Source of the DNA: an uncultured Pseudomonadales bacterium
GTDB lineage: Bacteria; Patescibacteriota; Microgenomatia; UBA1400; PJMF01
Length of the DNA: 64,000 bases
Reading direction: 5' to 3'
NCBI GenBank assembly: GCA_964457085.1
Contig: CAYWDM010000001.1
Location: 111,690 to 175,689, forward strand
Part shown: positions 1,971 through 53,379 of the stretch, piece by piece
Layout: each line of letters begins with the position of its first letter
Position numbering within the stretch: position 1 is the first letter of the stretch
Program-made: the position numbers and the translations under genes
Notes under the pieces: model-generated
What the model was told of the DNA's origin: nothing
Database searches by the model: none
The model's input: the letters and a program-made list of their open reading frames with translations, nothing else

Positions 1971-2001
1971 ACTACCTCGGTTTACAAAAGGAGCATAGTA
2001 C

Positions 2002-2883: not shown

Positions 2884-2888
2884 ATCTC

Positions 2889-4019: not shown

Positions 4020-4040
4020 CTTATTCGCACATTTAGAGTT

Positions 4041-5204
4041 ATGGTGAAAAATCCCTCAGTTGCACTTGTCTATGACCGAGTCAACACCGCTTTCGGTGGT
4101 GCAGAGAGAGTTCTGTTAGCCCTACATCAAGCTTTTCCAGACGCACCCCTATATACTGCTGTAGCTGATAAACGTGCTTCAAGATGGGCAGAAGTCTTTG
4201 AGATACGAACTAGTTGGCTACAACAAGTTCCATTCGCAAGTCGACTCCACCGGCTGCTTGCTTCGCTCATGCCGTTGGCATTTGAATCGTTTGATTTGAG
4301 CAACTTTGACGTCATTATTAGTGTCACCAGTGCTGAGGCAAAAGCAGTTATTACCAGAACAAATCAACTGCATGTTTGTTATTTACTCAGTCCACCAAGA
4401 TATTTGTATCACCAAAGAGATGAATTGGTGAATGCTGCCTGGTGGTCATCCGTACCGGGATTATCACAACTTGGCAAACTTGCTCTGAAATATTTGACTT
4501 GGTGGGATCAGACTGCCATGTCTCGTCCAGATATCGTCATTCCCTTATCAAAAGTTGTTGCCAATAGATTTAAGAAAATTTATGGGCGAACAGCAAACCC
4601 AGTGTTGTATCCACCCATTGAGACAAAGCACCTTACTCCAAAAATCACTCAGCAAAAACTAAAACAATTTGCAGACACGCATCCTCACTTTCTGTTACTG
4701 ATTGCACGACTTGTTACCTACAAGCGTGTTGATTTAGCAATTGCTGCTGCCAAAAAATGTAATGTGCCATTAATCATCGTCGGCGATGGTCCAGATTTCA
4801 TCCAACTCAGTTCTCAAACTGGGGTCACAACCTTGTTGATTCCAAAAGTCTCGGAATCTGAACTGGCATGGTTATACTCTAACTGTACAATGGTGCTTAT
4901 TCCTGGAGTCGAAGATTTTGGCCTCACTGCACTTGAGGCAAATGCCTATGGTAAACCAGCGGTAATTAACAAAAATGCTGGTGCCAGTGAAGTAATTGAT
5001 GATGGAATCCATGGAGTACATGTCCAAAAAACTACTCTTGAAAGTCTGGTAACTGCTATTTTAAGCTGCCAAAAACTAGCCTTCTCACCAACCGTGCTTC
5101 GCCAAAACGCTAGTAAATATGATACAAGTATCTTTGTGACTGAATTCAAATCTATGGTTAAAATCGAGTGGGGAAAACAACAATCACGTATAATTCACAG
5201 TTAG
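4041..5204 (+). CDS. GT4-family glycosyltransferase
   Basis: EDFGLTALEANAYGKPAVI motif; GT-B fold. Confidence 0.75.
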   Translation: MVKNPSVALVYDRVNTAFGGAERVLLALHQAFPDAPLYTAVADKRASRWAEVFEIRTSWLQQVPFASRLHRLLASLMPLAFESFDLSNFDVIISVTSAEAKAVITRTNQLHVCYLLSPPRYLYHQRDELVNAAWWSSVPGLSQLGKLALKYLTWWDQTAMSRPDIVIPLSKVVANRFKKIYGRTANPVLYPPIETKHLTPKITQQKLKQFADTHPHFLLLIARLVTYKRVDLAIAAAKKCNVPLIIVGDGPDFIQLSSQTGVTTLLIPKVSESELAWLYSNCTMVLIPGVEDFGLTALEANAYGKPAVINKNAGASEVIDDGIHGVHVQKTTLESLVTAILSCQKLAFSPTVLRQNASKYDTSIFVTEFKSMVKIEWGKQQSRIIHS

Positions 5205-5217
5205 GCAAGGAGTTTTT

Positions 5218-6318
5218 ATGGCAACAGAGCACAGATATGCAGTGATTTTGGCTGGGGGTGGCGGCACAAGACTTTGGCCAAAATCCCGCAACCAAACACC
5301 AAAACAATTTTTAAACCTTTTCGGCAACCAAACTATGATTCAGGTGGCTGCAGAACGCGTCACTAAATTAGTGCCTTGGAAGAATGTGATTGTGGTGACT
5401 AACAGACTCTATTTAGATGATGTTCGAGATCAGTTACCTCAGGTTTTAAGTGAAAACATTATTGCGGAGCCAGAGAAGCGAGACACTGCAATGGCGATGC
5501 TGGTGGGAGCACTCTACGTCAAGAGTAAAGATCCCGATGCCATCATCATGAACGCTGCATCAGATCATGTAATCGCAGATGACAAGGAGTTTAGTCGGGT
5601 AATGACCGCAGCTGTCGAAGTGGCAGCGACAGATCACAAACTGGTAACAGTCGGTATCACTCCTACTTTCCCACATCCCGGTCTCGGATACATTAAAATT
5701 GGCCAAGATTTACGCAAGATTGGTCAAGGATTATCCCTTTTCAAGGTTGATAGCTTCACCGAAAAACCAAATCTACCAACTGCAAGAGCTTTTATCTCCA
5801 CAGGTAGATATTTTTGGAATGCCAATATGTATGTCTGGGGTGCTGAGGATCTCCAAGCTGCATTTGCTCGATATATGCCCAGCATGTTCGAGCTAACCAA
5901 ACATCTGCCAGACCTTGATTCCAAGGCATTTCACAAAGCTCTCCCTGCTGTCTATGCCAAAGCAGAGAGTATTTCCATTGACTACGCCATTAGTGAGAAA
6001 GCCGACAATCTGGTGTTGATTCCTGGAGATTTTGGCTGGAATGATGTAGGTGATTGGAAAGTAGTTTACGATCTGAGTAAAAAAGACTTAGCGAATAACG
6101 TGATCGTCGGCGATAAAGAAAAAGTTAAGACTCTGGCAATTAGCTCTCAAAACAACTTCATTCATGCTGATGGTAGATTAATTGCATTATTTGGCGTTAG
6201 TGACATGATTATTGTTGATACAGAAGAAATCCTGATGATCTGTCCCAAGTCTTCAAGTCAAGACGTTAAGAAAATCGTCGAGCGACTGAAAGAAGAAAAT
6301 AAAAAAGAATATCTATAA
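5218..6318 (+). CDS. manC: Mannose-1-phosphate guanylyltransferase (GDP-mannose pyrophosphorylase)
   Basis: AVILAGGGGTRLWPKSR nucleotidyl-transferase signature. AAGGAG RBS at 5205-5210. Confidence 0.75.
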   Translation: MATEHRYAVILAGGGGTRLWPKSRNQTPKQFLNLFGNQTMIQVAAERVTKLVPWKNVIVVTNRLYLDDVRDQLPQVLSENIIAEPEKRDTAMAMLVGALYVKSKDPDAIIMNAASDHVIADDKEFSRVMTAAVEVAATDHKLVTVGITPTFPHPGLGYIKIGQDLRKIGQGLSLFKVDSFTEKPNLPTARAFISTGRYFWNANMYVWGAEDLQAAFARYMPSMFELTKHLPDLDSKAFHKALPAVYAKAESISIDYAISEKADNLVLIPGDFGWNDVGDWKVVYDLSKKDLANNVIVGDKEKVKTLAISSQNNFIHADGRLIALFGVSDMIIVDTEEILMICPKSSSQDVKKIVERLKEENKKEYL

Positions 6319-6323
6319 ATCAA

Positions 6324-6950
6324 ATGCCATACGAAACCGAAAAACGACTGCTCGACATCACCGTATCATTGGCTCTGATTGTGGCTTTCATGCCAATCTG
6401 GATCTTTGCTCCAATCCTGATTTATCTTGACTCAGGCTGGCCAATTATGTTCATGCACAAACGCATGGGTAAGGGAGGCAAAGAGTTTCACCTCTACAAG
6501 TTTCGTTCCATGGTGCACAACGCCGATGAGATTTTGCATAAAAAAAACCCCGAGTTATTGGCAAAATTCAAAAAAGGCGACTGGAAAATCGAGGCCAAAG
6601 AAGATCCTAGAATCACCAAACTTGGGAGAATTCTCAGATCACTCACAATCGATGAGTTTCCTCAAATCTACAATGTGTTGCGCGGTGAAATGAGTATGGT
6701 TGGTCCTCGTGCTTACCTCAAAGCAGAGCTTGAAGAGCAAACCAAGAAATATCCCATCACCAAAAAGTTTGTCAAAGAAATTCTATCTGTTAAACCAGGA
6801 ATTACCGGTCCCTGGCAAACGAGTGGCCGTAACGAGATACCATTTGCACAACGAGCTGAAATCGACGCACATTATGCAAGAACCAGATCAATCAAAAATG
6901 ATCTCTTGATCTTACTGCGTACTCCAAAAGCCATGATTTCTAAGTGGTAA
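6324..6950 (+). CDS. Polyprenyl-phosphate sugar phosphotransferase (PglC/WbaP C-terminal-domain family), the initiating enzyme
   Basis: Single N-terminal TM helix. YKFRSMV and RGEMSMVGPRA motifs of the bacterial sugar transferase family. Confidence 0.8.
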   Translation: MPYETEKRLLDITVSLALIVAFMPIWIFAPILIYLDSGWPIMFMHKRMGKGGKEFHLYKFRSMVHNADEILHKKNPELLAKFKKGDWKIEAKEDPRITKLGRILRSLTIDEFPQIYNVLRGEMSMVGPRAYLKAELEEQTKKYPITKKFVKEILSVKPGITGPWQTSGRNEIPFAQRAEIDAHYARTRSIKNDLLILLRTPKAMISKW

Positions 6951-6998
6951 ACTTTGTTGGTGTGCTCACACCAATGATTTTGCTATACTGGTAGAACT

Positions 6999-9035
6999 AT
7001 GTCATTAGAACCAGTACAACAACTCGACCAAGAAAACTCATTACTGCCCACAGCTCAGGTTAAAAGACTTGATATTGATGATCTTGGCACCACTTCTGAC
7101 GACGAAACGCTCACACAGTTTACTCAATCAGCAGCAATCAAAACCTCTATGTCACGCAAATCATCATTTAAACCTTGGATGAAAGTATTGTTAGTCATCT
7201 GTATTATTTTGTTGGCAGTTGCTGGTGGTGTAGCTATTGTTGGCTTCAAAGCCTCACAAGTGGCCATCAAATTGCGATCACAGAGCGAAGATGCAAAAAT
7301 ACTTGGTAATTCCGCATATACAGCTTTCAAAGCTCAAAACCTTCCTGAAGCAGAAACAAAGCTCAAAGAGGTTAAAACCAAAGTCGATGAAATGGAAACT
7401 ACCTATCAGGAACTTGCTGTTTACGGCAAAATGCCCCTATTCAGTGGATATTTCCAAGATGGCGAGCATGCTTTCAAAGCTGCTAAGGCATCATTAAATG
7501 GTGGTGAAAAAGCACTAGCTGCAATTACTCCATACGCTGATGTTTTAGGGTTTAAGGGTGAAGGTACTTTCACTGGGGGTACTGCTGAAAATCGCATTAA
7601 AATGTTGATCGAGACGCTTGACAAAGTAATGCCGGTTTTTGACGAGATCAACACTGAATTTAAGATTGCCGAACAAGAATTGGCAGCCATTGACTCGAAT
7701 CGTTATCCCGAGCAATTTAAAGACATGAAAATCCGTTCACAAATTGTTGATGCTCAAAACATGGCTAAGACAACCATCGCCACTCTTGAAGAGTTCCGTC
7801 CTGTTTTGGCACAACTACCAGATATCGCTGGTGGCAAAGGTCAACGCAAAAAATATTTGATCTTATTTCAAAACGACAATGAACTCCGCCCAACTGGTGG
7901 TTTCTTAACTGCTTATGCAGTCGTTTACATAGAAAATGGCAAAGTTACTCCAGAAAAATCAGATGACATCTACGAACTAGATAAGAAATTTACCAAAAAA
8001 ATTCCTATCCCTGAAAAGTTAGGCAAATACCTGGTTACTGAGAAACTCTTTCACATGCGTGACATGAACACTTCACCAGATTTCAAAACTTCGATGGATC
8101 TCTTCTACTCACATTACAAAACCATCAAGACAGAGCCTGACAATATCGACGGCATCATTGCCATTGACACACAAATGCTGACCGATTTAGTTTCGATCCT
8201 TGGTCCAGTTGAAATTGCAGGTTATGGAACTTTTAGTGCTGAAAACGACAAACACTGTGACTGTCCACAAATTGTCTATGCACTCTCAGAAATCATTACT
8301 CGACCAACCCCATACCTAAGAGTAGACCGTAAAGGCATTCTTGGGCCCATGATGCAATCGATTTTAGCCAAGACCTATGGTGCTAACAAACAAGTCTGGC
8401 CAAAACTTTTTGAAACAGCTTGGAAAGGCGTTGAGGGACGTCATATTCAAATGTATTTCATGGATGAAAAAGCCCAAGCTGCTGCAGAAGCAGTGAATGG
8501 AGCAGGCAGAATGATTGCCCCAACCAACGGTGAGGATTTCCTAGCTATCGTTAATGCCAACCTTGGGGGTGCCAAATCAAATCTGTTTATCAATTACGAC
8601 CTCAAACAGACAGTTTCTGCACCAGAAAATGGTCAAATCACCAAAACTATCGAGATTACCTATAAAAACTCTCGAAAAGGTGATAACTGCAATCTCGAAG
8701 CTGGCTTGCTCTGTTTGAATGCACGTCTAAATGACTGGACTCGAATTTATGTTCCAGCTGGTTCGAAACTGGTCGAAGGTAAAGGTTTCATCAAAGAGCT
8801 CACTCAATATGATGAGGCTGGATTCACCGTCTTCGATGGAAACTTCAACCTTGAGCCAATGAGTTCTGCCAAATTAGTTGTAACGTACACAGTGCCATAC
8901 TCTGACGCGACAACTTATAAAACAACCGTGTGGAAACAGGGCGGCATCAGTCCATTCAATAGTATGTTTGATGTGGCTGGTGGCGAAGAGCAGGTGTTAG
9001 TTGATAAAGACACTGCCTTCCAAACCAAGTTCTAG
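6999..9035 (+). CDS. DUF4012-domain membrane-anchored protein
   Basis: N-terminal TM helix. KYLILFQNDNELRPTGGFLTAYAVVYIENGKV matches the DUF4012 signature (RYLVLFQNNAE.R.TGGFIG) found in polysaccharide loci. Confidence 0.7.
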   Translation: MSLEPVQQLDQENSLLPTAQVKRLDIDDLGTTSDDETLTQFTQSAAIKTSMSRKSSFKPWMKVLLVICIILLAVAGGVAIVGFKASQVAIKLRSQSEDAKILGNSAYTAFKAQNLPEAETKLKEVKTKVDEMETTYQELAVYGKMPLFSGYFQDGEHAFKAAKASLNGGEKALAAITPYADVLGFKGEGTFTGGTAENRIKMLIETLDKVMPVFDEINTEFKIAEQELAAIDSNRYPEQFKDMKIRSQIVDAQNMAKTTIATLEEFRPVLAQLPDIAGGKGQRKKYLILFQNDNELRPTGGFLTAYAVVYIENGKVTPEKSDDIYELDKKFTKKIPIPEKLGKYLVTEKLFHMRDMNTSPDFKTSMDLFYSHYKTIKTEPDNIDGIIAIDTQMLTDLVSILGPVEIAGYGTFSAENDKHCDCPQIVYALSEIITRPTPYLRVDRKGILGPMMQSILAKTYGANKQVWPKLFETAWKGVEGRHIQMYFMDEKAQAAAEAVNGAGRMIAPTNGEDFLAIVNANLGGAKSNLFINYDLKQTVSAPENGQITKTIEITYKNSRKGDNCNLEAGLLCLNARLNDWTRIYVPAGSKLVEGKGFIKELTQYDEAGFTVFDGNFNLEPMSSAKLVVTYTVPYSDATTYKTTVWKQGGISPFNSMFDVAGGEEQVLVDKDTAFQTKF

Positions 9036-9037
9036 AC

Positions 9038-9583
9038 ATGGGCAAACGATCAGGCTTTACAGTCACAGGGTTGATACTCAAACGAACGAGTGTCGGCGAA
9101 GCTGACCGCATTGTGACTCTTTTCACTCCAGATCAAGGCAAAGTAGTTTGTGTGGCCAAAGGTGCTCGTAAGCTAACTTCCTCTCAGCGAGGCTCTCTGG
9201 AACCAGGCAACCTTGTGAAAGCGATGATCATCCCCACTCAATCTCTCTGGCTGCTCACTCAAACGACATTGATTTCTGATTTGGGGGATTGTTGGAAAGA
9301 TTTGGCTCAATTGCGTCGAGTAAGCCAAATTCTTGAGATAACTGACAAACTGGTTGCGGAAGCCGATCCAGATCCAGAACTGTTTATTTTGGTTAGCCAA
9401 TTACTCACTAGAATCATCAAGCGAACTGCAAGTGATATCGTGGTGCGGGATCAATTAGACTCAATCATTCAGCATCTGGGTTTCCCAACTCTAGCCGAGT
9501 CTCAACACCAATCAATTTCTGATTATGTTAGTGAGCTAACTGATCGTGAAATTAAAAGTTTTAAATATCTTAAAGTTGAGTGA
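9038..9583 (+). CDS. recO: DNA repair protein RecO (short form, N-terminal OB domain)
   Basis: LILKRTSVGEADRIVTLFTPDQGKVVCVAKGARKLTS aligns to the RecO N-terminal domain (E. coli [38 protein letters not shown]). Only 181 aa, so the C-terminal zinc region is absent. Confidence 0.65.
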   Translation: MGKRSGFTVTGLILKRTSVGEADRIVTLFTPDQGKVVCVAKGARKLTSSQRGSLEPGNLVKAMIIPTQSLWLLTQTTLISDLGDCWKDLAQLRRVSQILEITDKLVAEADPDPELFILVSQLLTRIIKRTASDIVVRDQLDSIIQHLGFPTLAESQHQSISDYVSELTDREIKSFKYLKVE

Positions 9584-9641
9584 TTTTAGGCATATAATTG
9601 CTTTGTTCTAATGCCCTGAATTCGGCATTGATCAAAAAAAT

Positions 9642-10634
9642 ATGCCTCAAGATCCAATCAATCTTCAGTACACTACTATCAAGTCACCACTCCCTGATTT
9701 CATTTACGATGGGTTGAAACAATTTTCTGCAACAGCTAACGCCTATCAGCCACAACCGAAGATCCTAATTGATAAGCTCGCTGCCAAACACCACTTGCCT
9801 AGTGAACTGTTTTTCTTGACTGCCGGCATTGATGAAGCCATTCAAATGTTAATTCTGACGTACAGCAAGAATACCTTTGTATTTACCCCAACATACATTG
9901 TCTATGCTGATGTCGAGGTTTTTGGCGGCAAACTAACTCGCCTTCCTTCGATTATCGACTCCACATTTACCATTGATCCTCAACACATCCCCGGTGCTTC
10001 ATTAATTTTTCTTGCAAATCCAAACAATCCTTCTGGATTTACTGAAAAGTCTGTTGTAATGGAGTTAATTAAAAATAACCCCCAAGCAATTGTAGTCATC
10101 GATGAGGCTTATGGTGAGTTTGCAGAACTCTCAGTTATTGATGAAGTTCCAAAATATCCAAACTTAGTGGTGATGCGCAGTTTTTCTAAAGCATATAGCA
10201 TGGCTGGTAATCGAGTTGGTTATATCGTCGCAGCTCCGAATATCATTGCTGCCTGTCGCAATAAAGTGCAGTGGTCAAACATCTCGTACCTTTCGATAGG
10301 TGCAGCAGTGGTAGCACTCAACCATGAGAACTATTTTTTGGATCTGAGACAAAAAATTGGCCAGAGTAGGGATGAACTCCGTGAATTTTTAGTTGCCCAA
10401 GGTTTTAGTGTCCTGCCCTCAAAAATTAATGCTCTACTATTGCGGTTCTCATCTGAGACAGCTGGAACTGAGTTTGCTGAGTTCTTAACTGCTGAAGGTT
10501 TTATCATCAGCCATGGCAACGGGAATAGTAATATTGGTCTGGATAAATCGTTTGTCAGAATTGCGATTGGTACAGATGAACAGCTGGCAAAATTGCGTCA
10601 ATCCATTCTAAAATTCCACAGCGTGTTACAATAA
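9642..10634 (+). CDS. Class I/II PLP-dependent aminotransferase (HisC-like)
   Basis: RSFSKAYSMAGNRVGYIVA, a PLP-lysine motif of the histidinol-phosphate aminotransferase type. Confidence 0.65.
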   Translation: MPQDPINLQYTTIKSPLPDFIYDGLKQFSATANAYQPQPKILIDKLAAKHHLPSELFFLTAGIDEAIQMLILTYSKNTFVFTPTYIVYADVEVFGGKLTRLPSIIDSTFTIDPQHIPGASLIFLANPNNPSGFTEKSVVMELIKNNPQAIVVIDEAYGEFAELSVIDEVPKYPNLVVMRSFSKAYSMAGNRVGYIVAAPNIIAACRNKVQWSNISYLSIGAAVVALNHENYFLDLRQKIGQSRDELREFLVAQGFSVLPSKINALLLRFSSETAGTEFAEFLTAEGFIISHGNGNSNIGLDKSFVRIAIGTDEQLAKLRQSILKFHSVLQ

Positions 10635-10639
10635 ACACA

Positions 10640-10846
10640 GTGTTGATCCGCCTGGCAGGCGGGGAGCTATAACAAGTTCAGATAAAGCGGATAGGCAGAA
10701 TTGCGTTTCAGCCTATCAAAGGGGGTGGAACCGCGATTCCGCTCAGGATCTTAAAATCCTGACTAGAACCGTCCCTCTACAGTATTTTTTAATTAAATTG
10801 CTGTGGAGCGACGGTTTTTTATTACCCACCACAGCCGAAAGGTTTC
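10640..10846 (+). promoter_or_regulatory. T-box leader upstream of glyQS
   Basis: Exact T-box core AGGGGGTGGAACCGCG at 10720-10735 (consensus AGGGUGGNACCGCG). The variable N is A, complementary to the U73 discriminator usual in tRNA-Gly. A GGC codon occurs in a 5' hairpin (ccgcctGGCaggcgg). A ~200 nt structured leader directly precedes an aaRS gene. Confidence 0.55.
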
Positions 10847-12265
10847 ATGACTGACCAAATCCAGTCACCTCAACCACTTACACTCGACACCATCGTGGCA
10901 CTAGCCAAACGTCGAGGTTTTGTATTTCCCACCTCTGCAATTTATGGCGGTCTTGCCAACTCATATGACTATGGTCCACTCGGAGTCCAACTACTAAAAA
11001 ACATTAAAGATGCCTGGTGGCAGAGTTTTATCACTTCTAGACCTGACATGGTTGGACTTGACAGTCAGATAATGCTCCATCCTCGTACCTGGGAAGCTTC
11101 TGGTCACGTAGCTTCGTTTAGTGATCCTTTAGTTGAAGATCTCAAAACCAACAAGCGCTATCGAGCTGATCATTTGATCAAAGCCTGGCTGGCAACACAA
11201 ACTGATGAGACTCTTCGTGCCACCTCAGTTGAAGACATGAAAATAGAGGACATGGCGAAGTTTATCCTCGATCATCAAATTAAAAGTCCTGAAGGTAATC
11301 AAATCTCAGCACCTCGCTCTTTTAATCTCTTATTTGAGACTGCAATTGGTGCTGTCGCTGGTGAAAAATCCAAGGTCTATCTACGTGGTGAAACCGCACA
11401 GGGAATTTTTAGTAACTTTAAACAAGTACTGGACACCACTCGTACCAAACTACCATTTGGAGTTGGACAAATCGGAAAAAGTTTTCGCAATGAAATTACC
11501 ACTGGTCAGTTCATCTTCAGAACCTTTGAATTTGAGCAAGCAGAAATTGAGTACTTCTTCAACCCAGCACTGAGTGATTGGCAACAAATCATGAGCGACT
11601 GGAAAGACTCAATGTGGAGTTTTGTCACACAGAAACTGGGCATCCAGCAGGAACATCTGCGATGGCGCCAACACACCGATAAAGAACGCAGTCACTATAG
11701 TAAAGACACCTACGACCTGGATTATGAATATCCATTTGGGTGGAGTGAGCTTTGGGGAGTGGCTTACCGTACTGATTATGACCTCAAGCAGCATATGCAA
11801 TTTAGTGGTGAATCTCTTGAGTACATCGATCCATCCACTGGTGAGCGATTTGTACCACATGTGATTGAACCCGCAGTTGGTGTTAACCGCCTATTACTCA
11901 TGGTGCTCTGTGATGCATATTCTTTTGACAGTGAAAAACAGCGAACTGTACTTAAATTCGCACCAAGCATCGCTCCATACAAAGCAGCGATCTTTCCACT
12001 GGTCAAAAACAAACCAGAATTAGTCGGTTTAGCCCAAACTATTTTTGCAAGTCTATCCAAAAAGACTGCTGTTGCTTGGGATGACCGAGGTAATATCGGT
12101 AAACGATATTTAGCTCAAGATGAGATTGGTACTCCAATTTGTATCACCGTTGACTATCAATCACTTGAGGATCAAACGGTTACCATTCGACATCGTGACA
12201 GTGCTCTACAAGAACGACTACCAATAGAAAAACTTGAGGCATACATCGTAGCTATGATAAGCTGA
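10847..12265 (+). CDS. glyQS: Glycyl-tRNA synthetase, alpha2 (GlyQS) type
   Basis: AIYGGLANSYDYGPLGVQLLKNIKDAWWQ and class II aaRS motifs throughout. Confidence 0.9.
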   Translation: MTDQIQSPQPLTLDTIVALAKRRGFVFPTSAIYGGLANSYDYGPLGVQLLKNIKDAWWQSFITSRPDMVGLDSQIMLHPRTWEASGHVASFSDPLVEDLKTNKRYRADHLIKAWLATQTDETLRATSVEDMKIEDMAKFILDHQIKSPEGNQISAPRSFNLLFETAIGAVAGEKSKVYLRGETAQGIFSNFKQVLDTTRTKLPFGVGQIGKSFRNEITTGQFIFRTFEFEQAEIEYFFNPALSDWQQIMSDWKDSMWSFVTQKLGIQQEHLRWRQHTDKERSHYSKDTYDLDYEYPFGWSELWGVAYRTDYDLKQHMQFSGESLEYIDPSTGERFVPHVIEPAVGVNRLLLMVLCDAYSFDSEKQRTVLKFAPSIAPYKAAIFPLVKNKPELVGLAQTIFASLSKKTAVAWDDRGNIGKRYLAQDEIGTPICITVDYQSLEDQTVTIRHRDSALQERLPIEKLEAYIVAMIS

Positions 12266-41318: not shown

Positions 41319-41370
41319 AAGACTATTCTAGCAGAAGTGCAAAATGGGAGTTAGTATCCTCATGAAAATG

Positions 41371-41443
41371 AGCCAGAGGTGGGAATCGAACCCACGACCT
41401 ACGGTTTACGATACCGCCGCTCTACCAACTGAGCTACACTGGC
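41371..41443 (-). tRNA. tRNA-Thr (anticodon CGU)
   Basis: Folded by hand: acceptor GCCAGTG/CTCTGGC (one T-T mismatch), D-arm GCTC/GAGC with AGTTGGTA loop, anticodon arm GCGGT/ACCGT with loop ATCGTAA, T-arm GTGGG/CCCAC with loop TTCGATT. The overlapping plus-strand ORF 41344-41694 is spurious. Confidence 0.85.
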
Positions 41444-41532
41444 TAACTGGTGCATTGTACAAAAGATATCAGGGGAGAGCAAATAAATTACTGGCAAATT
41501 TAAAAAAATTAAGCCAAATAAGGATTATTCAA

Positions 41533-41565: not shown

Positions 41566-41760
41566 CTACTCTTTCTTTTTCTCCTTCGGTTGAACAACCC
41601 CACGGGTTGCCTTATCAACACCAACGAGTTGCGCGATGCCCCAAAGAGCAAGCAATACCTCGTCGATGAAACCAGGAACAAAAAGAGCGACTAAACCAAG
41701 CACAAGGAAAAGCAAAATGCGCTTGGCTGGGGACAGCGAACCTATCCCTTTGAAATTCAT
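41566..41760 (-). CDS. Small membrane protein (64 aa)
   Basis: Strong AGGAGG RBS 8 nt upstream of the ATG. Two hydrophobic helices. Confidence 0.5.
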   Translation of the reverse strand: MNFKGIGSLSPAKRILLFLVLGLVALFVPGFIDEVLLALWGIAQLVGVDKATRGVVQPKEKKKE

Positions 41761-41786: not shown

Positions 41787-43004
41787 TTAGTAGATCGGAG
41801 TGCTGTTACGCTCCGCATAACTAATTAGCCGCTTGTGAGCAGCCAATGAGCCATCTTTCTCGCCCGTTACAGCCCAGATCTCACCATTGACTAGTGCGAT
41901 CTCAGCTTGCTGAGGGTTTGTGGTAAAGCGCTCAAACCGCCGAGTACGGGTTTGCGATACATCTACCTTTGGATAGGGAGCCATCGGTAAACCGGTGAGC
42001 ACCCACTTCGAGGTGGTACCGCTGTCCATGGTTTCATCCGTGAAAGCGGCCTCGGACGATTTCTTGTCCTTAGCAGCCAACAAAACAGACGAAACTACAG
42101 TCAACGAACGGTCTCCAAAATCCCCAGCCACTCCCAATAGTTCTGAAACATACTGGATAGAGCTGGTATAGATACCGCCTGAGATCATGCCACCTTCAGC
42201 CGCCACAACCGTGGATCGACTGTGTGCCATAACAGCACGGGTAACAGAATCGCAAATAAACACCACATCATATCCTGCTTGTGTAAGTCGACGAGCTCGC
42301 TTCACAGCAAACTCGAAAACCTGCACCTGGATATGCAATGGATCCTCACGAGGAGAAGTGAAGAATTCACCACGCTCAGGACCAACCAGATCCCAAACTT
42401 TTTTGTAATCGGTGAAGTCTTCAGATCTTTCTCCTAGATGAAGAACAATGGGATACAACTTCGCATCTTCTTTCGTAAGACGAAGCAGTGCTTCCCATAA
42501 TGCCAGCAGAACGCTGGTTTTACCACTGCCGCCTGGGGCGGCTAGGTAAATGGACTGGCCTTTGCCAATCGGGGCCAACAAAGTCAGCACCCGCAAAGAC
42601 AAATTGCCAAACTTTTCCACTCTCAAAGGACGAGTGGGATAGTTGGCCCCGAGAAATATACGCTTGTCGCGCAAATCCTCAGCCTCGCCAACGATCCGTG
42701 GCCACGCAGAGACCATTGCTGGATCTGTGCAGCCATTAACCGAGATGATGCTGTCTGGACTCTCGGAACTGAGTTCAACCAAATCGCCTTCTTCCAGATT
42801 CCACCTTAACACCACCGATGGACTAACCACCAGTGAATATTGAGGAGCATTGGGAGATTGCGCTTGGTCAATCAGATGCTGACGCCGGTGAGTTCTGAGT
42901 TTCCCCAGATTTCCCGGTATTAACGTTGTGAGTGGCGGCACGCGTTCCCCGTAAACGAGGACTGCGTTTGGATCCACTCCTTGCTGAAGCACCCATGCTT
43001 TCAA
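41787..43004 (-). CDS. Divergent Rho-family RecA-like ATPase (transcription termination factor Rho homolog)
   Basis: [31 protein letters not shown] versus Rho [40 protein letters not shown] versus [38 protein letters not shown] versus HVQVAEMVIEKAKRLVE..VIILLDSITRL. TTG start with an AGGAGGTG RBS. Higher GC than the surrounding genes. Confidence 0.65.
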   Translation of the reverse strand: [405 protein letters not shown]

Positions 43005-43219
43005 GGTTCACCTCCTGAGTGACTGAATGGGGTTTGACTCACCTCGCCTCTTTTTAAGGCATAGGGGAAAACTTAGTCCTATCAATTAATTTCAATAAGA
43101 CAAACTTTTCCCCTGTGCCAAATAATCCTTATTTGGCTGTTAAAGAACAAACACAACAAGAGAGCTTGGCCAACGGGCAAGGGGTGGAAAACCACCCCAA
43201 GCCCGAAGACACAAACTAA

Positions 43220-44401: not shown

Positions 44402-44727
44402 GTCTTGAGAAACAGTGACACAGAGCCCTAGCTATATATCTGAAAAAGAAGAGTGGAGAAACAAACCAAAAAAGAAGTTATCAGTTTTTTTATTTTAATA
44501 AAAACATCTTTGTTTTTATATATCTCTCTTGTTGTGTTGTTAAAGATCTACCAAGCAAAACAGTTGAGAACTATACGCAAACAGAGACGCAGTGTGATTT
44601 GTGTTATACAGATCACGGTCTCTGTTGCACCTCTCAACCGATTATATTTACTTGGTCACTGTTTCGACTTCGAGAAGTCTCATCAGGTCTAGGCAAAACC
44701 TAGACGACAGTGCACAACAAGAGAGTG
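44282..44727. repeat. 446-bp direct repeat, copy 1 (100% identical to 48142-48587)
   Basis: Verified block by block. Contains a hammerhead ribozyme, an AT-rich putative promoter, nested hairpins around a start codon, and 40 shared codons. Confidence 0.9.
44657..44712 (-). ncRNA. Type III hammerhead ribozyme (copy 1)
   Basis: Minus-strand RNA 5'-CACUGUC|GUCUAGG-UUUUG-CCUAGAC-CUGAUGA-GACUUCUCGAAGUC-GAAA-CAGUG-3'. Closed stem I (7 bp), complete CUGAUGA core, stem II closed by G10.1-C11.1, GAAA, and a 6-bp stem III with a GUC cleavage triplet. Confidence 0.8.
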
Positions 44728-44767: not shown

Positions 44768-46189
44768 TCACGGTCCAATCAACGCCGGTGCCGCACTAGT
44801 CGGTACCGTTTCAAAGATGAGTAAATCACCAGATTCTGACCACTTTGCAGTGATCTCATGGTCAGTAGTATTCTCAATCACTAAATCCGCACTCTGACAA
44901 TTTATGCCCACCGTGAAGATAGGATAAAATGGATAGAAAGTGTGAGAAGGAGCTTTGGCTACTACAAGACCTGGTACTTGGCTTGCCCAGTTTTTGATGA
45001 CTGAAGCATTGGCACAAATACCACCAGCACTGATGTTTGCCGCGAATTTATATTGATCCCAGCCGGTCTCGTTCGTCTGTTGACAGAACGACCAAGTGCC
45101 ATTGGCTGGAACTACTATTGTCTGGTTTAAAGTTGACCAAAGCGCTACGTTATAGGCTTGGCCATCTGCAACCGGGACATCGCGGGTGAGATTGATTGTC
45201 AATTGCCCTGAACCAGGTACGAGTGTACCTCCAGGTAGACCAGCAGCTGCATTACCAGCTTCGGCCTGCCAATTCTCTGGCAAGAGACCCATCTCTTGGA
45301 AAAACTGAATGCTTGCTGACTGGAAAAATGCATATTCTCCAGGAGAACCAAATGATAGGCTGGTCTGGACATCAAAACCGCCCAAACCTCGACCGGCATA
45401 AATATCAGCCGTCGCTACCAACTGACGTCGGTAGGGCTCATCGTGGTTCCACCCATAAAGAACCTTCACTCTTTCCTCTACAGTCATGTCAGAGCGATAA
45501 CCCATGCGATTTACTTCATAGGCCATTGCAAAAAACATGACTTTCTGGTCCCAGAAGTCACAAGATTTGACAACCGGGTCAGTTGAGGTTTGAAGCGCCA
45601 CCTTACAGATTCGCCAAGCAGTGGTGGGAATAAACCCACCAGCACCAAGCTCACCTGCAGACGCGTGCCCCAACCAATCTGAATAATCTGACTTGATGTA
45701 TTGAGCTGCCACTGGGTTATGAGCCCGAATGTCCTGCTCTTTCCATAAAGCCAATAACTCCAGGCCAGCTTCCTTTTCTTTAGCAGCTATGAGGTTTGTG
45801 TTCCCCATTGCTGATGCAAGACCAGGCGAGCTACCCAGATTTGTTCCGCCTGCACTTTCGCCGCTATGGAGAGACTGCAAAATGGCGAGGTCAAGCTGAC
45901 CTTTCCACTGAGCGTTCACCCATGTGATTGCGGCTTGAGCGTCAGCCACAGCTGTCGGATCAAGTCCGATCGCCTTTACCGTCACCTCGTCGGTGGCAGA
46001 GAGCGAGTAGGAGAGTTCCGACCGAACCCCGAGGATCTGAGCCATCATGCGCTCATAACCCTCGGGGTTGGTATCATGTTGGTACAACAGGTAGACGAAT
46101 CCACCCATCGGAACAACACAGCTGACGACTGTGGCCACCACGATCGCAAGCAAGATGAGTTTTTTTGATAAGTTACGATGTCGCCTCAC
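44768..46189 (-). CDS. Membrane-anchored cell-wall-active protein with a lytic-transglycosylase-like region and a C-terminal VanW-like domain
   Basis: N-terminal TM helix. SGESAGG...AGELGAGGFIPTTAW resembles the SLT ES / AGAxGLMQ motifs. The C-terminus GGICANASVIKNWASQVPGLVV...YPFYP..G.DL.IEN resembles the VanW domain. Confidence 0.45.
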   Translation of the reverse strand: MRRHRNLSKKLILLAIVVATVVSCVVPMGGFVYLLYQHDTNPEGYERMMAQILGVRSELSYSLSATDEVTVKAIGLDPTAVADAQAAITWVNAQWKGQLDLAILQSLHSGESAGGTNLGSSPGLASAMGNTNLIAAKEKEAGLELLALWKEQDIRAHNPVAAQYIKSDYSDWLGHASAGELGAGGFIPTTAWRICKVALQTSTDPVVKSCDFWDQKVMFFAMAYEVNRMGYRSDMTVEERVKVLYGWNHDEPYRRQLVATADIYAGRGLGGFDVQTSLSFGSPGEYAFFQSASIQFFQEMGLLPENWQAEAGNAAAGLPGGTLVPGSGQLTINLTRDVPVADGQAYNVALWSTLNQTIVVPANGTWSFCQQTNETGWDQYKFAANISAGGICANASVIKNWASQVPGLVVAKAPSHTFYPFYPIFTVGINCQSADLVIENTTDHEITAKWSESGDLLIFETVPTSAAPALIGP

Positions 46190-48261: not shown

Positions 48262-48587
48262 GTCTTGAGAAACAGTGACACAGAGCCCTAGCTATATATC
48301 TGAAAAAGAAGAGTGGAGAAACAAACCAAAAAAGAAGTTATCAGTTTTTTTATTTTAATAAAAACATCTTTGTTTTTATATATCTCTCTTGTTGTGTTGT
48401 TAAAGATCTACCAAGCAAAACAGTTGAGAACTATACGCAAACAGAGACGCAGTGTGATTTGTGTTATACAGATCACGGTCTCTGTTGCACCTCTCAACCG
48501 ATTATATTTACTTGGTCACTGTTTCGACTTCGAGAAGTCTCATCAGGTCTAGGCAAAACCTAGACGACAGTGCACAACAAGAGAGTG
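48142..48587. repeat. 446-bp direct repeat, copy 2
   Basis: Identical to 44282-44727 and offset by 3860 bp. Confidence 0.9.
48517..48572 (-). ncRNA. Type III hammerhead ribozyme (copy 2)
   Basis: Identical 56-nt sequence to copy 1. Confidence 0.8.
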
Positions 48588-48629: not shown

Positions 48630-48929
48630 CTACTGCTTTAATCTCCACTCTTCGTCTTCATGTCCTTTACCGCTTTCTTCACACTGACGCATATAGCGTC
48701 GATTTTTAATCCACCCAGGAATTCGAGTGAGCATGAAAATTACGGCAATAACTCCAAACACTTGGTACGTATATTTGGAATAATTAAACATGAGAACAAT
48801 CACGGCGCCACCAACCATAGCGATCACTTTCGTAATCAATGGCAATCCGTGCGAGCGATCGAACCACTCGTAGCGAGATCTTTTTAGCCAACGCTTGATT
48901 CCTCGAATCACTGGAGATGACGTGTTCAT
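48630..48929 (-). CDS. Small two-TM membrane protein (VirB3-like by size, topology and position; hypothetical)
   Basis: 99 aa with two hydrophobic helices. Lies immediately upstream (in operon order) of the VirB4-like ATPase. Confidence 0.4.
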   Translation of the reverse strand: MNTSSPVIRGIKRWLKRSRYEWFDRSHGLPLITKVIAMVGGAVIVLMFNYSKYTYQVFGVIAVIFMLTRIPGWIKNRRYMRQCEESGKGHEDEEWRLKQ

Positions 48930-50338
48930 GGTAGATCATCTCCATCGCTAATCACGATCGTATCCTTACCGGTAAACGGGTCGGATGCTGACTGCGAAGC
49001 GGAATCATCGAAATTGCTGGACAAATCACTTGGCCCTGTAGGCAGCACGTCGTCATCTGACACCAAAGTGTCTGAGACTATTGTTGCTGTAGTTGTGCCA
49101 ACTTGAGTGATTGTCCCTTCGATTTGCGTTTGGGTAGTGGGCAACTCATCCAGCTTGTCCACATCGTCACTGACGACAATCGTAGCCGCATCAACCGAAG
49201 CTGAACGACTCTTCTCATCACCGGTTTCGATTACGGGCAGCTCATCTTCTAAATCATGAGAGTCTGCCCCGTAAACCACTTGCTTAGGTGAATCCGAAAA
49301 TTCATCGTTTGCTGTTTCCTTAACCTGACCATCGACGACTCCGCTAGTTGCAGAGAGAAGACCGTCATTGGGAGGATAAGCATAGATGACATCAGAGTCG
49401 CCTTGTGGACCGTTGCCACCACTGCCACCACCGTCCACACCATCATCCGAAGAATTAGGCGTGAAAGGAAAAGGCACGAATGTTGCTGTGCTAGAAGCAT
49501 CAGCTCCAGTACCTTCGGCGGGCAGTTCGTCTTGAGCTGATTCTTGCTCGTCAGCGCTTTCACTTGGCATATAAACAATCGCCAAGATCGGCGGCAAAAA
49601 GTAAGTAACCAACCCCAGAATTAGCATTGTCACCAGATAAATCAGGTTAAACGCAACAAAGCTGCTCACGATCGCATTATCCGGACGGATGCTGCCAAGC
49701 AATTCTGTCACATTTTTGACCACTTCTGGTGCCAGTATCCAACCAGCAATACTCGCCGCAGCAACCCCAAGAGGCCGCCACGACCAAGTCATTATCGCGA
49801 CCGCAACACAGATGATGAGCACCACTGAGGTGACAATCTGCATCGCAGCATGAAATAACGGCCAGTTGAGAATGAACGACAACGCCCATATGAAACTGAG
49901 TGGGTTGGTGTCACCGACTGGAATCGGAAACGTCCAACCCAACTGAGTAGCAATCCAGCTGAGCGTGAGCGCCTCAGGCCAAGTAGCTCGGCCGAGTTGC
50001 TCAATGGCTGGTAAGATATAAGGGAGTATTCCTACCCCAAACATCAAACCAAACATTTTACGGACTTTACCCCAATTTTGTTTCTTCAAGCCAGAAATAA
50101 TGCCGAGTAAAGCAATCGGCACAAGGCACTGAAGAACAGAGAGCAACCCTTTGGCTGCAGATTGGGATAGATTGATGAACGCCATGCTTTTTAAGGGCAC
50201 CGCGTCATCAATTGCCCGATCGATTGCGCCACATCCCGAAAGAAATAGCATCGAAAGGGTTAGAATGATCGCGACCCTGAGTTTCATGGTCGCACTTCTA
50301 CTTGATACTGGAGACGAGGTTTGTGATGAGCAAACCAA
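48926..50338 (-). CDS. Polytopic membrane lipoprotein with a long acidic disordered C-terminal tail (VirB6/ConG-like candidate)
   Basis: Lipobox LSGC after a signal peptide. At least six TM helices. ~170 aa D/E/S/T-rich C-terminus. Likely start at the internal ATG near 50287 (MKLRVAIIL). Confidence 0.45.
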   Translation of the reverse strand: MVCSSQTSSPVSSRSATMKLRVAIILTLSMLFLSGCGAIDRAIDDAVPLKSMAFINLSQSAAKGLLSVLQCLVPIALLGIISGLKKQNWGKVRKMFGLMFGVGILPYILPAIEQLGRATWPEALTLSWIATQLGWTFPIPVGDTNPLSFIWALSFILNWPLFHAAMQIVTSVVLIICVAVAIMTWSWRPLGVAAASIAGWILAPEVVKNVTELLGSIRPDNAIVSSFVAFNLIYLVTMLILGLVTYFLPPILAIVYMPSESADEQESAQDELPAEGTGADASSTATFVPFPFTPNSSDDGVDGGGSGGNGPQGDSDVIYAYPPNDGLLSATSGVVDGQVKETANDEFSDSPKQVVYGADSHDLEDELPVIETGDEKSRSASVDAATIVVSDDVDKLDELPTTQTQIEGTITQVGTTTATIVSDTLVSDDDVLPTGPSDLSSNFDDSASQSASDPFTGKDTIVISDGDDLP

Positions 50339-50546
50339 TCCCCTGTGTCAGTGGACCGCTGGTGATGATATCCTTGGCTGCAAAAGCTGAAAGCGCCAGG
50401 ACAAACCACATCGCGACGACGACAGAAGTGTCGCCCCAAGAGGTCATCTTCTTGACCTTATTCACAGACTCGGGGAACACAGTGACCACACCAAACACTA
50501 TCATGGCGCTGATCAGAGCCGTACCGAAGTTGATTAAAGCTTGCAT
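50298..50546 (-). CDS. Small membrane protein (82 aa)
   Basis: AGGAG RBS 6 nt upstream of the ATG. Two TM helices. Preceded by conserved structured leader A. Confidence 0.45.
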   Translation of the reverse strand: MQALINFGTALISAMIVFGVVTVFPESVNKVKKMTSWGDTSVVVAMWFVLALSAFAAKDIITSGPLTQGIGLLITNLVSSIK

Positions 50547-50571
50547 GTTTACTCCTTATTTCTGAATGGTT

Positions 50572-50664
50572 GAATGGATTGACGATTGGAACAACGACGG
50601 GCGTCTTGCGACGCCGTGAGGATGCCCCATCTAGGGGCGGACAATTTGTGCGATATGCACCTCC
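50572..50664 (-). promoter_or_regulatory. Conserved structured 5' leader, copy A
   Basis: Minus-sense GGAGGUGCAUAUCGCAC..CCCCUAGAUGGGG..GGCGUCGCAAGACGCC (GNRA-like loop), then RBS and ATG. ~85% identical to copy B. Confidence 0.45.
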
Positions 50665-50950
50665 GTTAAGGATGGGATGTAGTGCAACGAACAGCTTTGC
50701 CCTTTTTTTGGGCTTGGGCCTAATAAACACTCATAAAAAAATAAGCGCTCATTGAGCCCAAGCCACGACAACCAACAGCTATATAAGAAGTTTAGTAAAT
50801 TCTCTTGTTGTGCTGTTAATGAGCAAGGCGACAAGTAACCTATTACAATAACAAGTTCTTATCGAAATACCCAGGCCAAATATGGCCAGATAACAACACA
50901 ATTATGCGGTTATCCAGCAATACTTTAAAAAGTAGGGGAATGAGTATTCA

Positions 50951-51006: not shown

Positions 51007-51468
51007 TTATGTCGTGGTGTCTACGGACAGAGTCGACGGAGCGACGGGATAGGCAAACATCGGCGCCATCTCCGCATCACTCATGCCGCATGCTTTTGCC
51101 ATAATGCGTGCAGAATTAGCAGACGCTTTATTGATTTGGCTTCGAGTGTTAATGCGGAGAACTTCCACATCGCCAATCATGCCAACCAAAAAACCATCCT
51201 TTAACTCTACACGGACAAAACACATGCCCTTTGGGGCAAGCAGGCGAGTGTACAACTTACGTGCGAAAATCTCGCGCGAAACAGCTGTGCTCAACTTCAA
51301 GCTCATCTTGGGCGACTCGTAATCCCAGATGACTTCCCCACCGGGGTCGTCAGTGCTGAAACCACAAACAAACAACAACTGCGCTTCATTAGTGCAGATG
51401 ATCGCAAAACCGTCTTCTGGCATGCGAATCGAACGTGACCCTTTCGAGGCCGGGGCTTGTTTAGCCAT
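51007..51468 (-). CDS. Hypothetical protein (153 aa)
   Basis: GAAGGAG RBS then ATG at 51468 (MAKQAPASKG). Preceded by leader copy B. Confidence 0.5.
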   Translation of the reverse strand: MAKQAPASKGSRSIRMPEDGFAIICTNEAQLLFVCGFSTDDPGGEVIWDYESPKMSLKLSTAVSREIFARKLYTRLLAPKGMCFVRVELKDGFLVGMIGDVEVLRINTRSQINKASANSARIMAKACGMSDAEMAPMFAYPVAPSTLSVDTTT

Positions 51469-51493
51469 GACTGATACTCCTTCTAACTTGAAT

Positions 51494-51584
51494 GAATGGA
51501 TTGACAACGAGCAACGACGGGCGCCTTATGACGCCGTGAGGGTACCCCATCTAGGGGCGGACAATTTGTGCGATATGCACCTCC
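51494..51584 (-). promoter_or_regulatory. Conserved structured 5' leader, copy B
   Basis: Same three-hairpin arrangement as copy A, with a compensatory U-A to U-G change in the third stem. Confidence 0.45.
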
Positions 51585-52082
51585 AAAAAAAACAGAATGT
51601 AATACGGGCATGCTCTTTTTTTGAGCTGGGGCCAAAGCTACTAACAGGTATGACTATTAACAGCTTTGACCTCAGCTCTTATACTCATTCCCCTGTTAAG
51701 GTGCGAAACGACAAAAAAATTGCAACGCAAATGCTGCAAATATTTATATCGTTTTGCTATCAAATCTAAACAAAAAGTATCCTATATATATCAGTAGAAA
51801 AACATTACAGGACGTGTTATACATCTTCAATATGTAAAAGTCAATATACTTTGATAGAGTTCAACTCGATAAAAAATACAAAAAAACCTTCTCCCTCTTG
51901 CGAGAGAGCAGGCGATGCCACAAATGGAACGATATTTTGGCAGTCTGTTGAGCGGCATTCTGACAAACGCATTCACTTCAGTTCATCTCGAATTCTCGAT
52001 CAACCTTGTCAACAAATAACAAACAACTATGAGTTTTTACTCCAGACACAATTGCATTAGAAAAACTAATCCATACCTGAAT

Positions 52083-52445: not shown

Positions 52446-52607
52446 AACTATTCCTTAATTAACAAAAATAAAATCTATCTACTCATATCTTACCAGATTA
52501 AAAAAACTAACTACAAGTCTGGTGAAAAGTAGTGAATAGATTAATATAGTATTGTTAAAGCCGTAGTTATTCTAACAAACGAGCACTATGTATCGATGTA
52601 TACTAAT

Positions 52608-52776
52608 ACTACCTTCGGGGTAGGTTGATCTTGCGTAACCGCGAGAAAATACCAATCGGTGGTACACTCCACGAGTCTTGCTTGCGAGACATGATCTGGT
52701 GAAACTCCAGAAGCGACCGTATAGTCGGGTATAAAGAAGGTACTCAAAAAACCACGCTATTTTGCGTGGTGTTTTG
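52608..52776 (+). promoter_or_regulatory. FMN riboswitch (RFN element) with intrinsic terminator
   Basis: P1 UACCUUC/GAAGGUA. 5' UUCGGGGUAGGUUGA..ACCG..CGGUGGUA and 3' UGGUGAAACUCCAGAAGCGACCGUAUAGUCGGGUAUAAAGAAGG, closely matching RFN UGGUGAAAUUCCAAAGCCGACAGUGAAAGUCUGGAUGGGAGAAGG. Terminator CCACGC/GCGTGG + UUUU at 52752-52776. CCCCGAAG at 52782-89 is complementary to the P1 5' strand, and GGGGCAU pairs across the SD. Confidence 0.75.
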
Positions 52777-52812: not shown

Positions 52813-53379
52813 TTGATGAAATTTTTAAATAGTTTCTCTAATCGGGATATCGCACTTTCCGCTGCATTAGCAGCTGTTTCAGCTGTTCTCCAATTCGTTC
52901 ATATTGGCTACCAGTCGCCACAGTGGGGAATGTGGATTGACGTGGTTGCAGTTTCCTGGGTGATTGCGTATTTCTTATTGGGAACTCGAGCTTCGCTACT
53001 GGTCACACTCACCGGCTCACTCATCATCACACTTTTTGCACCCGACACCTGGCTTGGTGCCTCGATGAAATTAGTGGCAACACTCCCGATACTTTTCTCA
53101 TTATTTATCTGGAAAAAAATCAAAAATACTGGCTACTCGAACCCTAGAAATCTCGCAGTCCCTGTCATAGCAGGCATGATTATTCGCTGCGCAGTAGTAC
53201 TTCCTGCAAATTACTACTACGCAATTCCCATCTGGACTGGACTAACCCCAGCTCAAGCTATAGCAGCCATCCCCTGGATGGCCATCGCCGGATTTAATAT
53301 TGTCCAAAGTATTTTAGATGTCGCACTTGCTTGGATAGTGGTCTATCGATTCAAGGTAATTAGATTTAAACAAGGCTAA
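52813..53379 (+). CDS. ribU: ECF-transporter S component, riboflavin-type (RibU-like)
   Basis: 188 aa, 5-6 TM helices, directly downstream of the FMN riboswitch, followed by ecfA and ecfT. Confidence 0.6.
   Translation: MMKFLNSFSNRDIALSAALAAVSAVLQFVHIGYQSPQWGMWIDVVAVSWVIAYFLLGTRASLLVTLTGSLIITLFAPDTWLGASMKLVATLPILFSLFIWKKIKNTGYSNPRNLAVPVIAGMIIRCAVVLPANYYYAIPIWTGLTPAQAIAAIPWMAIAGFNIVQSILDVALAWIVVYRFKVIRFKQG

Follow-up and report, generated by a model that had tools for sequence, protein, structure and literature searches.

A divergent Rho-fold ATPase linked to a type IV secretion-like operon in Patescibacteria as a candidate secretion motor

In this study, we analyzed a gene for a Rho-fold ATPase in a stretch of 64,000 nucleotides (nt) of contig CAYWDM010000001.1 (assembly GCA_964457085.1, positions 111,690 to 175,689; GTDB lineage Patescibacteriota, Microgenomatia, UBA1400, PJMF01), in the following called the window. 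The gene lies at the end of a cluster resembling a type IV secretion system (T4SS), and its product is a so far uncharacterised Rho-family variant whose genomic association is both new and constant, a finding which we consider to be real. Its catalytic residues are those of Rho, its RNA-contacting residues are not, and its constant neighbor encodes a membrane protein with three transmembrane segments (TM), here called the 3-TM protein. Our preferred reading, to which we give about an even chance, is that a Rho-derived, ring-forming ATPase has been recruited as dedicated cytoplasmic motor of a T4SS-like apparatus of Patescibacteria. Rho is seen as a protein with one purpose, the termination of transcription, and to our knowledge the only Rho-fold relatives known in secretion are the more distant ATPases of type III secretion systems (T3SS) and flagella. 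If the clade is locked into a secretion-like operon, it would thereby show clearly how a core factor of transcription can be exapted for a machine of the envelope. The question bears on what the T4SS of Patescibacteria transports and how it is energised, and the pair of Rho-like ATPase and 3-TM protein is a concrete candidate.

The similarity of the protein to Rho is far beyond chance. Pfam recognised only the generic nucleotide-binding domain ATP-synt_ab, while the Rho models of NCBIfam matched with E-values of 1e-26 to 4e-28 and Rho chains of the Protein Data Bank (PDB) with about 1e-22 to 9e-24, residues 57-369 of the query being aligned to residues 78-380 of Escherichia coli Rho. Comparison of hidden Markov models (HMMs) of the family and E. 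coli Rho by hhalign gave a probability of 99.7% (E 1.4e-26); the E. coli sequence used for it is consistent with the PDB alignments. The AlphaFold model, with a mean predicted local distance difference test (pLDDT) score of 83.8, combines an OB-like N-terminal domain, into which a helical segment is inserted, with an ATPase domain of the RecA/F1 type. Its best 50 Foldseek matches are all Rho, and SctN/FliI form the next-closest fold group in the structure comparison. Topology prediction gave no TM segment. Many family members share a conserved C-terminal tail, N-P-x-P-x-Y, which reads NSTPIY in the window. An earlier note on this DNA, made from the letters alone, had described a strongly divergent Rho-family protein, and all these comparisons agree with it; the motif that it cited from the Walker A region is present at residues 147-163. 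Its statement that the gene has a TTG start with a strong Shine-Dalgarno (SD) sequence also holds, as AGGAGG is found 6 nt upstream. The SD sequence, the TTG and the first codons are retained in a related locus (L028) whose protein is 80% identical, and the start residue is identical in the alignment of homologues from other lineages; therefore, the start is right.

Judged by its sequence, the protein is not a canonical Rho. It reached 93.0 bits with TIGR00767 (cut-off 509), 98.2 bits with NF006886 (cut-off 315) and 92.1 bits with NF041509 (cut-off 628), the model of the short-form paralogs (paralog_Rho2). The N-terminal helix bundle Rho_N (PF07498) gave no match in the Pfam search of the protein, which, like its homologues, starts with strand one of the OB-like domain. 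The roles of the individual positions of Rho are established by structural work, and at these positions 49 family sequences were compared with 113 canonical Rho sequences (E. coli numbering). The motor residues are kept: G183, K184 and T185 of Walker A appear as G-K-[TS] in all 49 sequences, the catalytic glutamate E211 is acidic in 49/49 (E 36, D 13), R212 of the arginine valve is present in 46 and R269 is kept, and Walker B D265 (D 41, E 6) as well as the arginine finger R366 are each retained in 47. At the primary RNA site, F64, R66 and Y110 fall into gaps in 44 of the 49 sequences, at Y80 the family has E, V, I, K or L instead, and D78 is not conserved. In the Q-loop, K283 has become G in 39/49 and T286 is S in only 18/49; in the R-loop, 36/49 have S or T in place of K326; and the basic residues R272, K298, R347 and R353 are not conserved in the family either. 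The family has loop motifs of its own, GGMI[SAG]GG in the Q-loop, which is hydrophobic (G-M-I) and not basic, and SLT...K-K-[ST]-S-E in the R-loop. Because the catalytic residues are kept, the RNA-site residues lost and the family's own loops conserved, the motor is under selection while the substrate it grips seems to have changed. A pseudo-enzyme is ruled out by the conservation of the catalytic residues across the 49 clusters.

The family is a sparse, fast-evolving and separate clade of Rho-fold proteins. A word-indexed search yielded 11 close relatives at 33-100% identity, after which, separated by a gap, canonical Rho came at E 1e-21. When 1.84 billion representatives were searched exhaustively with the profile, about 45-50 clusters matched from profile position 1-3 with E-values from 1e-180 to about 1e-40, whereas canonical Rho came at about 1e-37 or weaker and aligned only from position 53-57 or so; the best-scoring canonical sequences belong to Bacteroidota, Chlamydiales and Chloroflexota, not to Patescibacteria. 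A neighbor-joining tree of 162 sequences set the 49 family members as one clan apart from the 113 canonical Rho sequences. The exact split was recovered in 39 of 60 bootstraps and every replicate differed from it by 1-3 sequences at most; the mean distance is 1.6 within the family clan and 0.93 among the sampled canonical Rho. All named members are Patescibacteria, either from candidate division WWE3, among them the member in the complete genome CP006914.1, or labelled 'Patescibacteria group bacterium'. NCBI submitters called the WWE3 members 'transcription termination factor Rho', a name that is probably wrong or at least misleading for this family. When the 11-member alignment was searched against GTDB representatives, only four family loci were found, along with eight further sequences from Omnitrophota and Aquificota genomes, which are 28-33% identical and presumably canonical Rho. 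FtsZ of the window is 74-77% identical to proteins of Ca. Woesebacteria and Pacebacteria, in agreement with a Patescibacterial origin of the DNA. For this FtsZ, over 100 clusters were obtained at 71-81% identity, compared with only three at 56-58% for the Rho-like protein, and for this reason the Rho-like gene is accessory and not lineage-wide. No other Rho homologue was found within the window, and the literature gave no report of a canonical rho in these same genomes.

The genomic association is constant. On a single strand, a gene for a small protein with 2 TM is followed by genes for a polytopic membrane protein (about 450-500 aa), a 2-TM protein (about 100 aa), a P-loop ATPase (about 600-650 aa), a TM-anchored cell-wall hydrolase (about 430-470 aa), the 3-TM protein (about 330-430 aa) and finally the Rho-like protein. 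By gene calls, tblastn and HMM searches, the same order was found in the window and at loci L001-3, L006, L007, L011, L013 (the complete WWE3 genome) and L014; L001 holds the full eight-gene cluster at 1828-11191, with flanks (ychF ... rpsF-ssb-rpsR) that it shares with L004 and L005. The 3-TM gene lies immediately upstream of the Rho-like gene at every locus with upstream DNA available, including L004, L005 and the loci L008 and L023, which carry distant members; an HMM of the 3-TM protein recognised a sequence outside the model with E 1.8e-53. At most of the loci with upstream DNA the Rho-like gene closes the operon. The operon looks like a monoderm-type T4SS, and the T4SS-like context described in the earlier note was found as such, with a T4SS-like gene order, a wall hydrolase and the Rho-like gene at the end. 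The hydrolase has a conserved N-terminal domain, which matched SLT_2 in one orthologue, and a C-terminus that is VanW-like in the window and an M23 peptidase in four of six orthologues. For the other proteins of the operon, searches of Pfam, NCBIfam, PHROGs, PADLOC and PDB sequences gave nothing specific. The top three Foldseek matches of the P-loop protein, obtained with a poor model, are TrwK/VirB4 of plasmid R388 (E 8e-7 to 2e-6), and subsequent ones are TrwB, HerA, VirB4 of Thermoanaerobacter (4ag5) and TcpA.

As secretion motor, the Rho-like protein would assemble into a hexamer and dock, perhaps via its N-P-x-P-x-Y tail, on the part of the 3-TM partner that faces the cytoplasm, and would use ATP to engage, unfold or thread a substrate toward the VirB4-like channel. 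The ring would thereby fill the slot of a VirD4-type coupling protein, none of which is encoded in these operons, with the 3-TM partner serving as membrane tether in trans. Of the functions offered in the earlier note, the RNA helicase for the T4SS lies in this direction, as far as a motor for the T4SS is meant. T4SS clusters of Patescibacteria are related to the MPF-FATA/pCF10 class, are in most cases without a relaxase and without a coupling protein close by, and often carry peptidase or lysozyme genes right after virB4 (PMC12102498). As cited in the same survey, T4SS genes are essential for the epibiotic growth of a cultivated member of the group. The survey does not mention a Rho-like or PF00006 protein (PMC12102498), and our literature search found no paper linking a Rho-like ATPase to a T4SS.

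Several observations weigh against this assignment. A VirD4 homologue may lie elsewhere in the genome (PMC12102498), and the retained OB-like domain makes some nucleic-acid binding possible. The model of the P-loop protein has a pLDDT of 47, with only the C-terminal ATPase domain at about 75, because the word-based homologue search gave only four sequences, and no VirB4 match for this protein was obtained in the Pfam, NCBIfam and PDB sequence searches, even with a seven-member profile. The labels VirB2, VirB3 and VirB6 are based on size, topology and position only; the membrane proteins of the operon gave no sequence match to known VirB2, VirB3 or VirB6. Moreover, L004 (8860-11185) and L005 (6510-8835) keep the 3-TM and Rho-like genes intact while the six upstream genes are absent, and this reduced form was seen in independent metagenomes. 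The pair is thus able to persist without an adjacent VirB4-like core. As just these two genes are retained intact there, the pair is the tightest functional unit.

Among the alternatives, a nucleic-acid translocase that threads single-stranded RNA or DNA with remodelled pore loops through the T4SS-like channel, in or out, for example for the uptake of host RNA, is unlikely in our view. It would fit the Rho fold with its OB-like domain, the conserved operon linkage and the reported lack of relaxase and coupling protein in such clusters (PMC12102498), and a 2026 preprint describes host-RNA uptake by a cultivated Patescibacterium, with T4SS pili suspected and the mechanism unresolved (10.64898/2026.06.21.733656). 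However, the RNA-contact residues, i.e. the primary-site aromatics, K283 and K326, are replaced, which argues against a simple carry-over of RNA translocation; the Q-loop of the family is hydrophobic, and the operon holds no nucleic-acid processing gene. The more specific version, in which the substrate motor that the Patescibacteria apparatus lacks is this Rho-derived ring, with nucleic acid such as host RNA in epibiotic feeding threaded by it, we regard as somewhat more doubtful still; if true, a Rho-family helicase would for the first time be seen to act in trans-envelope transport instead of transcription.

The Rho-like protein is probably not a general transcription terminator. The other function offered in the earlier note, an operon-specific terminator, antiterminator or RNA remodeller acting on long, structured, ribozyme-processed leaders, is disfavoured and seems improbable to us, although Rho ancestry, the unusually long cluster leaders with hammerheads, repeated boxes and hairpins, and the existence of short Rho paralogs without N-terminal domain in other phyla (PMC11347177) speak for it. 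Those paralogs keep the RNA-binding domain as well as the catalytic and bicyclomycin-pocket residues (PMC11347177), whereas the primary and secondary RNA sites are lost throughout the present clade, whose protein stays at 92 bits against the cut-off of 628 of the short-form model. In addition, the invariable partner is the gene of a membrane protein and not of a regulator, and in L004 and L005 the pair persists with nearly no operon to regulate. Least probable, and in our opinion very much so, is that the gene represents the only, highly diverged housekeeping Rho of the lineage. The missing second Rho homologue in the window and the name given by NCBI submitters to the WWE3 members agree with such a role, but the distribution is very sparse compared to housekeeping genes of the same lineage, the gene is always found within an accessory operon of deviant base composition at sites differing between lineages, RNA-site residues and N-terminal domain are lost, and the mean distance within the family exceeds that of canonical Rho (1.6 versus 0.93). 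The parts of the cluster in the window are listed in Table 1.

Table 1. Features of the Rho-like gene and the associated cluster (window coordinates).
Feature	Position	Strand	Basis or remark
64-aa membrane ORF, one or two hydrophobic segments	41566..41760	-	Lies just after the Rho-like gene
Rho-fold ATPase gene, 405 aa	41787..43004	-	List of open reading frames (ORFs); TTG start
Shine-Dalgarno sequence AGGAGG	43011..43016 (read 43016-43011)	-	6 nt before TTG (43004-43002); kept in L028
215-nt leader between 3-TM gene and Rho-like gene	43005..43219	-	Hairpins and box; without hammerhead
3-TM membrane protein ('g393 family'), probably 329 aa	43220..44209	-	GTG at 44209 after AAGGAGG
Hammerhead type III motif	44657..44712	-	Leader of the 3-TM gene
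TM-anchored cell-wall hydrolase, VirB1/PrgK position	44768..46189	-	Domain matches
P-loop ATPase, VirB4-like, probably 629 aa	46192..48081	-	GTG at 48081 after GGAGG; weak structural evidence only
Hammerhead type III motif, identical copy	48517..48572	-	Leader of the VirB4-like gene
99-aa protein, 2 TM, VirB3/PrgI position	48630..48929	-	Topology, position
Polytopic membrane protein, at least 5 TM, VirB6/PrgH position	48926..50290	-	Topology, position
82-aa protein, 2 TM, VirB2/pilin-like by topology only	50298..50546	-	ATG at 50546, AGGAG SD
166-aa soluble protein, first cluster gene	51007..51507	-	42% identity with L001 counterpart

Some of the listed ORFs were corrected. A direct repeat of about 460 nt, 97-100% identical, covers 44262 to about 44725 and 48122 to about 48585 and forms the leaders of the 3-TM and VirB4-like genes. 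It gives the ORFs listed with 393 aa (3-TM, extending to 44401 by reading into the duplicated leader) and 689 aa (VirB4-like) a shared N-terminus of about 46 codons that is false; GTG at 44209 and GTG at 48081 are the likely true starts, each preceded by CCACAA(A)GGAGGTAC. Recombination between the two copies could be the source of deletion variants like L004 and L005. The roughly 190-aa C-terminal domain of the 3-TM protein is probably cytoplasmic, as a K/R-rich stretch follows TM3. The TTG start listed for the polytopic gene (470 aa, 50338) is probably too far upstream because it overlaps the small 82-aa gene, and the true start is probably located just below 50298. This 82-aa gene is absent from the ORF list and has small homologues in the corresponding place of L001, L006, L011, L013 and L014, while the listed 90-aa ORF in a different frame (50458-50730) is probably spurious. 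The 64-aa ORF is conserved only in the closest relatives, L025 and L028, and its membership of the system is uncertain.

In the leader of the Rho-like gene, a GC hairpin (ggggtgg/ccacccc) is followed by a CTCTCTTGTTGTG box, a 9-bp hairpin of the form GCCAAATAA-GGA-TTATTTGGC (43137-43117) and a second hairpin, AGGGGAAAAG...TTTTCCCCT; box, both hairpins and GGA loop are kept in L028. The CTCTCTTGTTGTG box was observed at the start of each cluster leader (43150-43164, about 44713-44725, about 48573-48585 and 50801-50822), mostly just after a GC-rich hairpin trailing the preceding stop codon, and might serve as promoter, as processing signal or as an element associated with a terminator. The 18-nt sequence AGCCAAATAAGGATTATT forms a perfect inverted repeat, located at 41512-41529 (+) and 43121-43138 (-). 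Its copies flank the Rho-like gene together with the 64-aa ORF, and the leader copy forms the 9-bp hairpin with the GGA loop. At both positions the core AGCCAAATA and a hairpin with GGA in the loop are conserved in L028. This repeat could be a site for a regulator or an RNA element. Another repeat, of 93 nt and 85% identity (50589-50681 and 51509-51601), directly precedes the start of the VirB2-like gene and that of the first cluster gene; on the minus strand it contains two GC hairpins (GCCCC..GGGGC and GGCGTC..GACGCC), has no Rfam match and may represent a second type of shared leader.

The ribozymes that the earlier note had placed beside T4SS-like genes were found by sequence reading and a custom pairing scan as two identical hammerhead motifs. 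Their sequence, CACUGUC/GUCUAGG..CCUAGAC CUGAUGA GACUUC..GAAGUC GAAA CAGUG, contains the complete set of parts, namely stem III, C17, the stem I hairpin, CUGAUGA, the stem II hairpin, GAAA and the closing strand of stem III, and the minimum free energy fold of the window hammerhead is the expected three-way junction. Homologous hammerheads with compensatory changes are present in the related loci L001 (4747-4802 and 8448-8503) and L008 (1349-1417); in L001 the changes affect stems I-III and the core reads CUGAAGA. A cmscan of the cluster with Rfam gave no hammerhead or other ribozyme at the gathering threshold, at E<=1 or at E<=10.

The island-like GC content stated for the gene in the earlier note was seen in the numbers, with 0.508 for the Rho-like gene and 0.478 for the cluster compared with 0.416 for the rest of the window, and 0.46-0.49 versus 0.36-0.39 at third codon positions (GC3). 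In all eight lineages examined, the GC content of the cluster is above that of its flanks by 3-6 points. The chromosomal site varies by lineage (ychF/rpsF in L001, next to thrS in L007, beside tRNA-Thr in the window), while L028 has the cluster at the same site as the window, followed by a 62-64-aa ORF, tRNA-Thr and a Big-domain gene. Within 41.4-52.5 kb of the window neither an integrase nor a relaxase was found, and no tRNA-derived att repeat is present at the far end. Of the term island, the deviant composition thus stands, but the signs of mobility are missing. Since integrase, relaxase and att repeat are absent, the GC offset recurs in seven other lineages and the relative shares the site, the cluster has not been inserted recently but is an accessory module of old age and distinct composition. 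A mobile island integrated at the tRNA was rejected, as the cluster is on the 5′ side of tRNA-Thr, which is the wrong side, and has no integrase, and the 80%-identical relative has the same site. A defence system (no PADLOC matches) and a phage module (no informative PHROGs matches) were likewise discarded. Upstream of tRNA-Thr (41370-41443), a conserved TTTTGTACAATGC with an extended -10-like TGnTACAAT was observed on the minus strand within 41444-41500 and also in L028. It is probably the promoter of tRNA-Thr, in which case this tRNA would be transcribed independently of the Rho-like gene. Just outside the cluster, a flavin mononucleotide (FMN) riboswitch at 52607-52745 (+) scored 70.5 bits, above the gathering score, upstream of plus-strand genes starting at 52813.

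Among known T4SS, pCF10 (MPF-FATA) is the closest in organization. Its genes prgH-prgI-prgJ-prgK-prgL match those of the cluster in order and topology, with a polytopic protein, a 2-TM protein, a large P-loop ATPase, a wall hydrolase and a membrane protein. The hydrolase follows immediately after the ATPase, as in pCF10. This arrangement is also frequent in the T4SS clusters of Patescibacteria, most of which have, like the present cluster, neither a relaxase nor a coupling protein nearby (PMC12102498). Unlike in those systems, the P-loop ATPase of the window is not recognised by Pfam, NCBIfam and PDB sequence searches, and a Rho-fold ATPase as fixed member is not mentioned for the T4SS of Patescibacteria in PMC12102498.

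With canonical Rho (TIGR00767/NF006886; PDB 7oqh, 3ice and 1pv4), the Rho-like protein shares Walker A and B, E211, R212, R366 and the order of P-, Q- and R-loop. It differs by the missing N-terminal helix bundle, the helical insert in the OB domain, the loss of F64, R66, Y80 and Y110, G in place of K283 and S/T in place of K326, HMM scores 3-5 times under the cut-offs, the operon context of a membrane apparatus and the sparse accessory distribution. The short-form paralogs ('Group B', NF041509) of Actinomycetota and the PVC group likewise lack the N-terminal domain, but they occur alongside a full Rho and have preserved the RNA-binding domain as well as the residues of catalysis and of the bicyclomycin pocket (PMC11347177), whereas the Rho-like protein remains far under their cut-off and belongs to a clan separate from the sampled canonical Rho.

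VirD4/TrwB and TcpA do the job proposed here, as a second, membrane-tethered hexameric ATPase beside VirB4 that hands the substrate to the channel. They have an FtsK/HerA-type fold with an N-terminal TM anchor, in contrast to the Rho/F1-type protein without TM in the window; there is no homology, and the analogy is drawn from gene position only. SctN/EscN and FliI belong to another subfamily, with the Rho-like protein reaching at most 50 bits at cut-offs of 380-750 (TIGR01026 379.5), and have a different N-domain as well as FliH/SctL stators and a T3SS export gate that are not present here. Nevertheless, they provide the precedent for a hexameric ATPase related to Rho and F1 that works as cytoplasmic motor of secretion.

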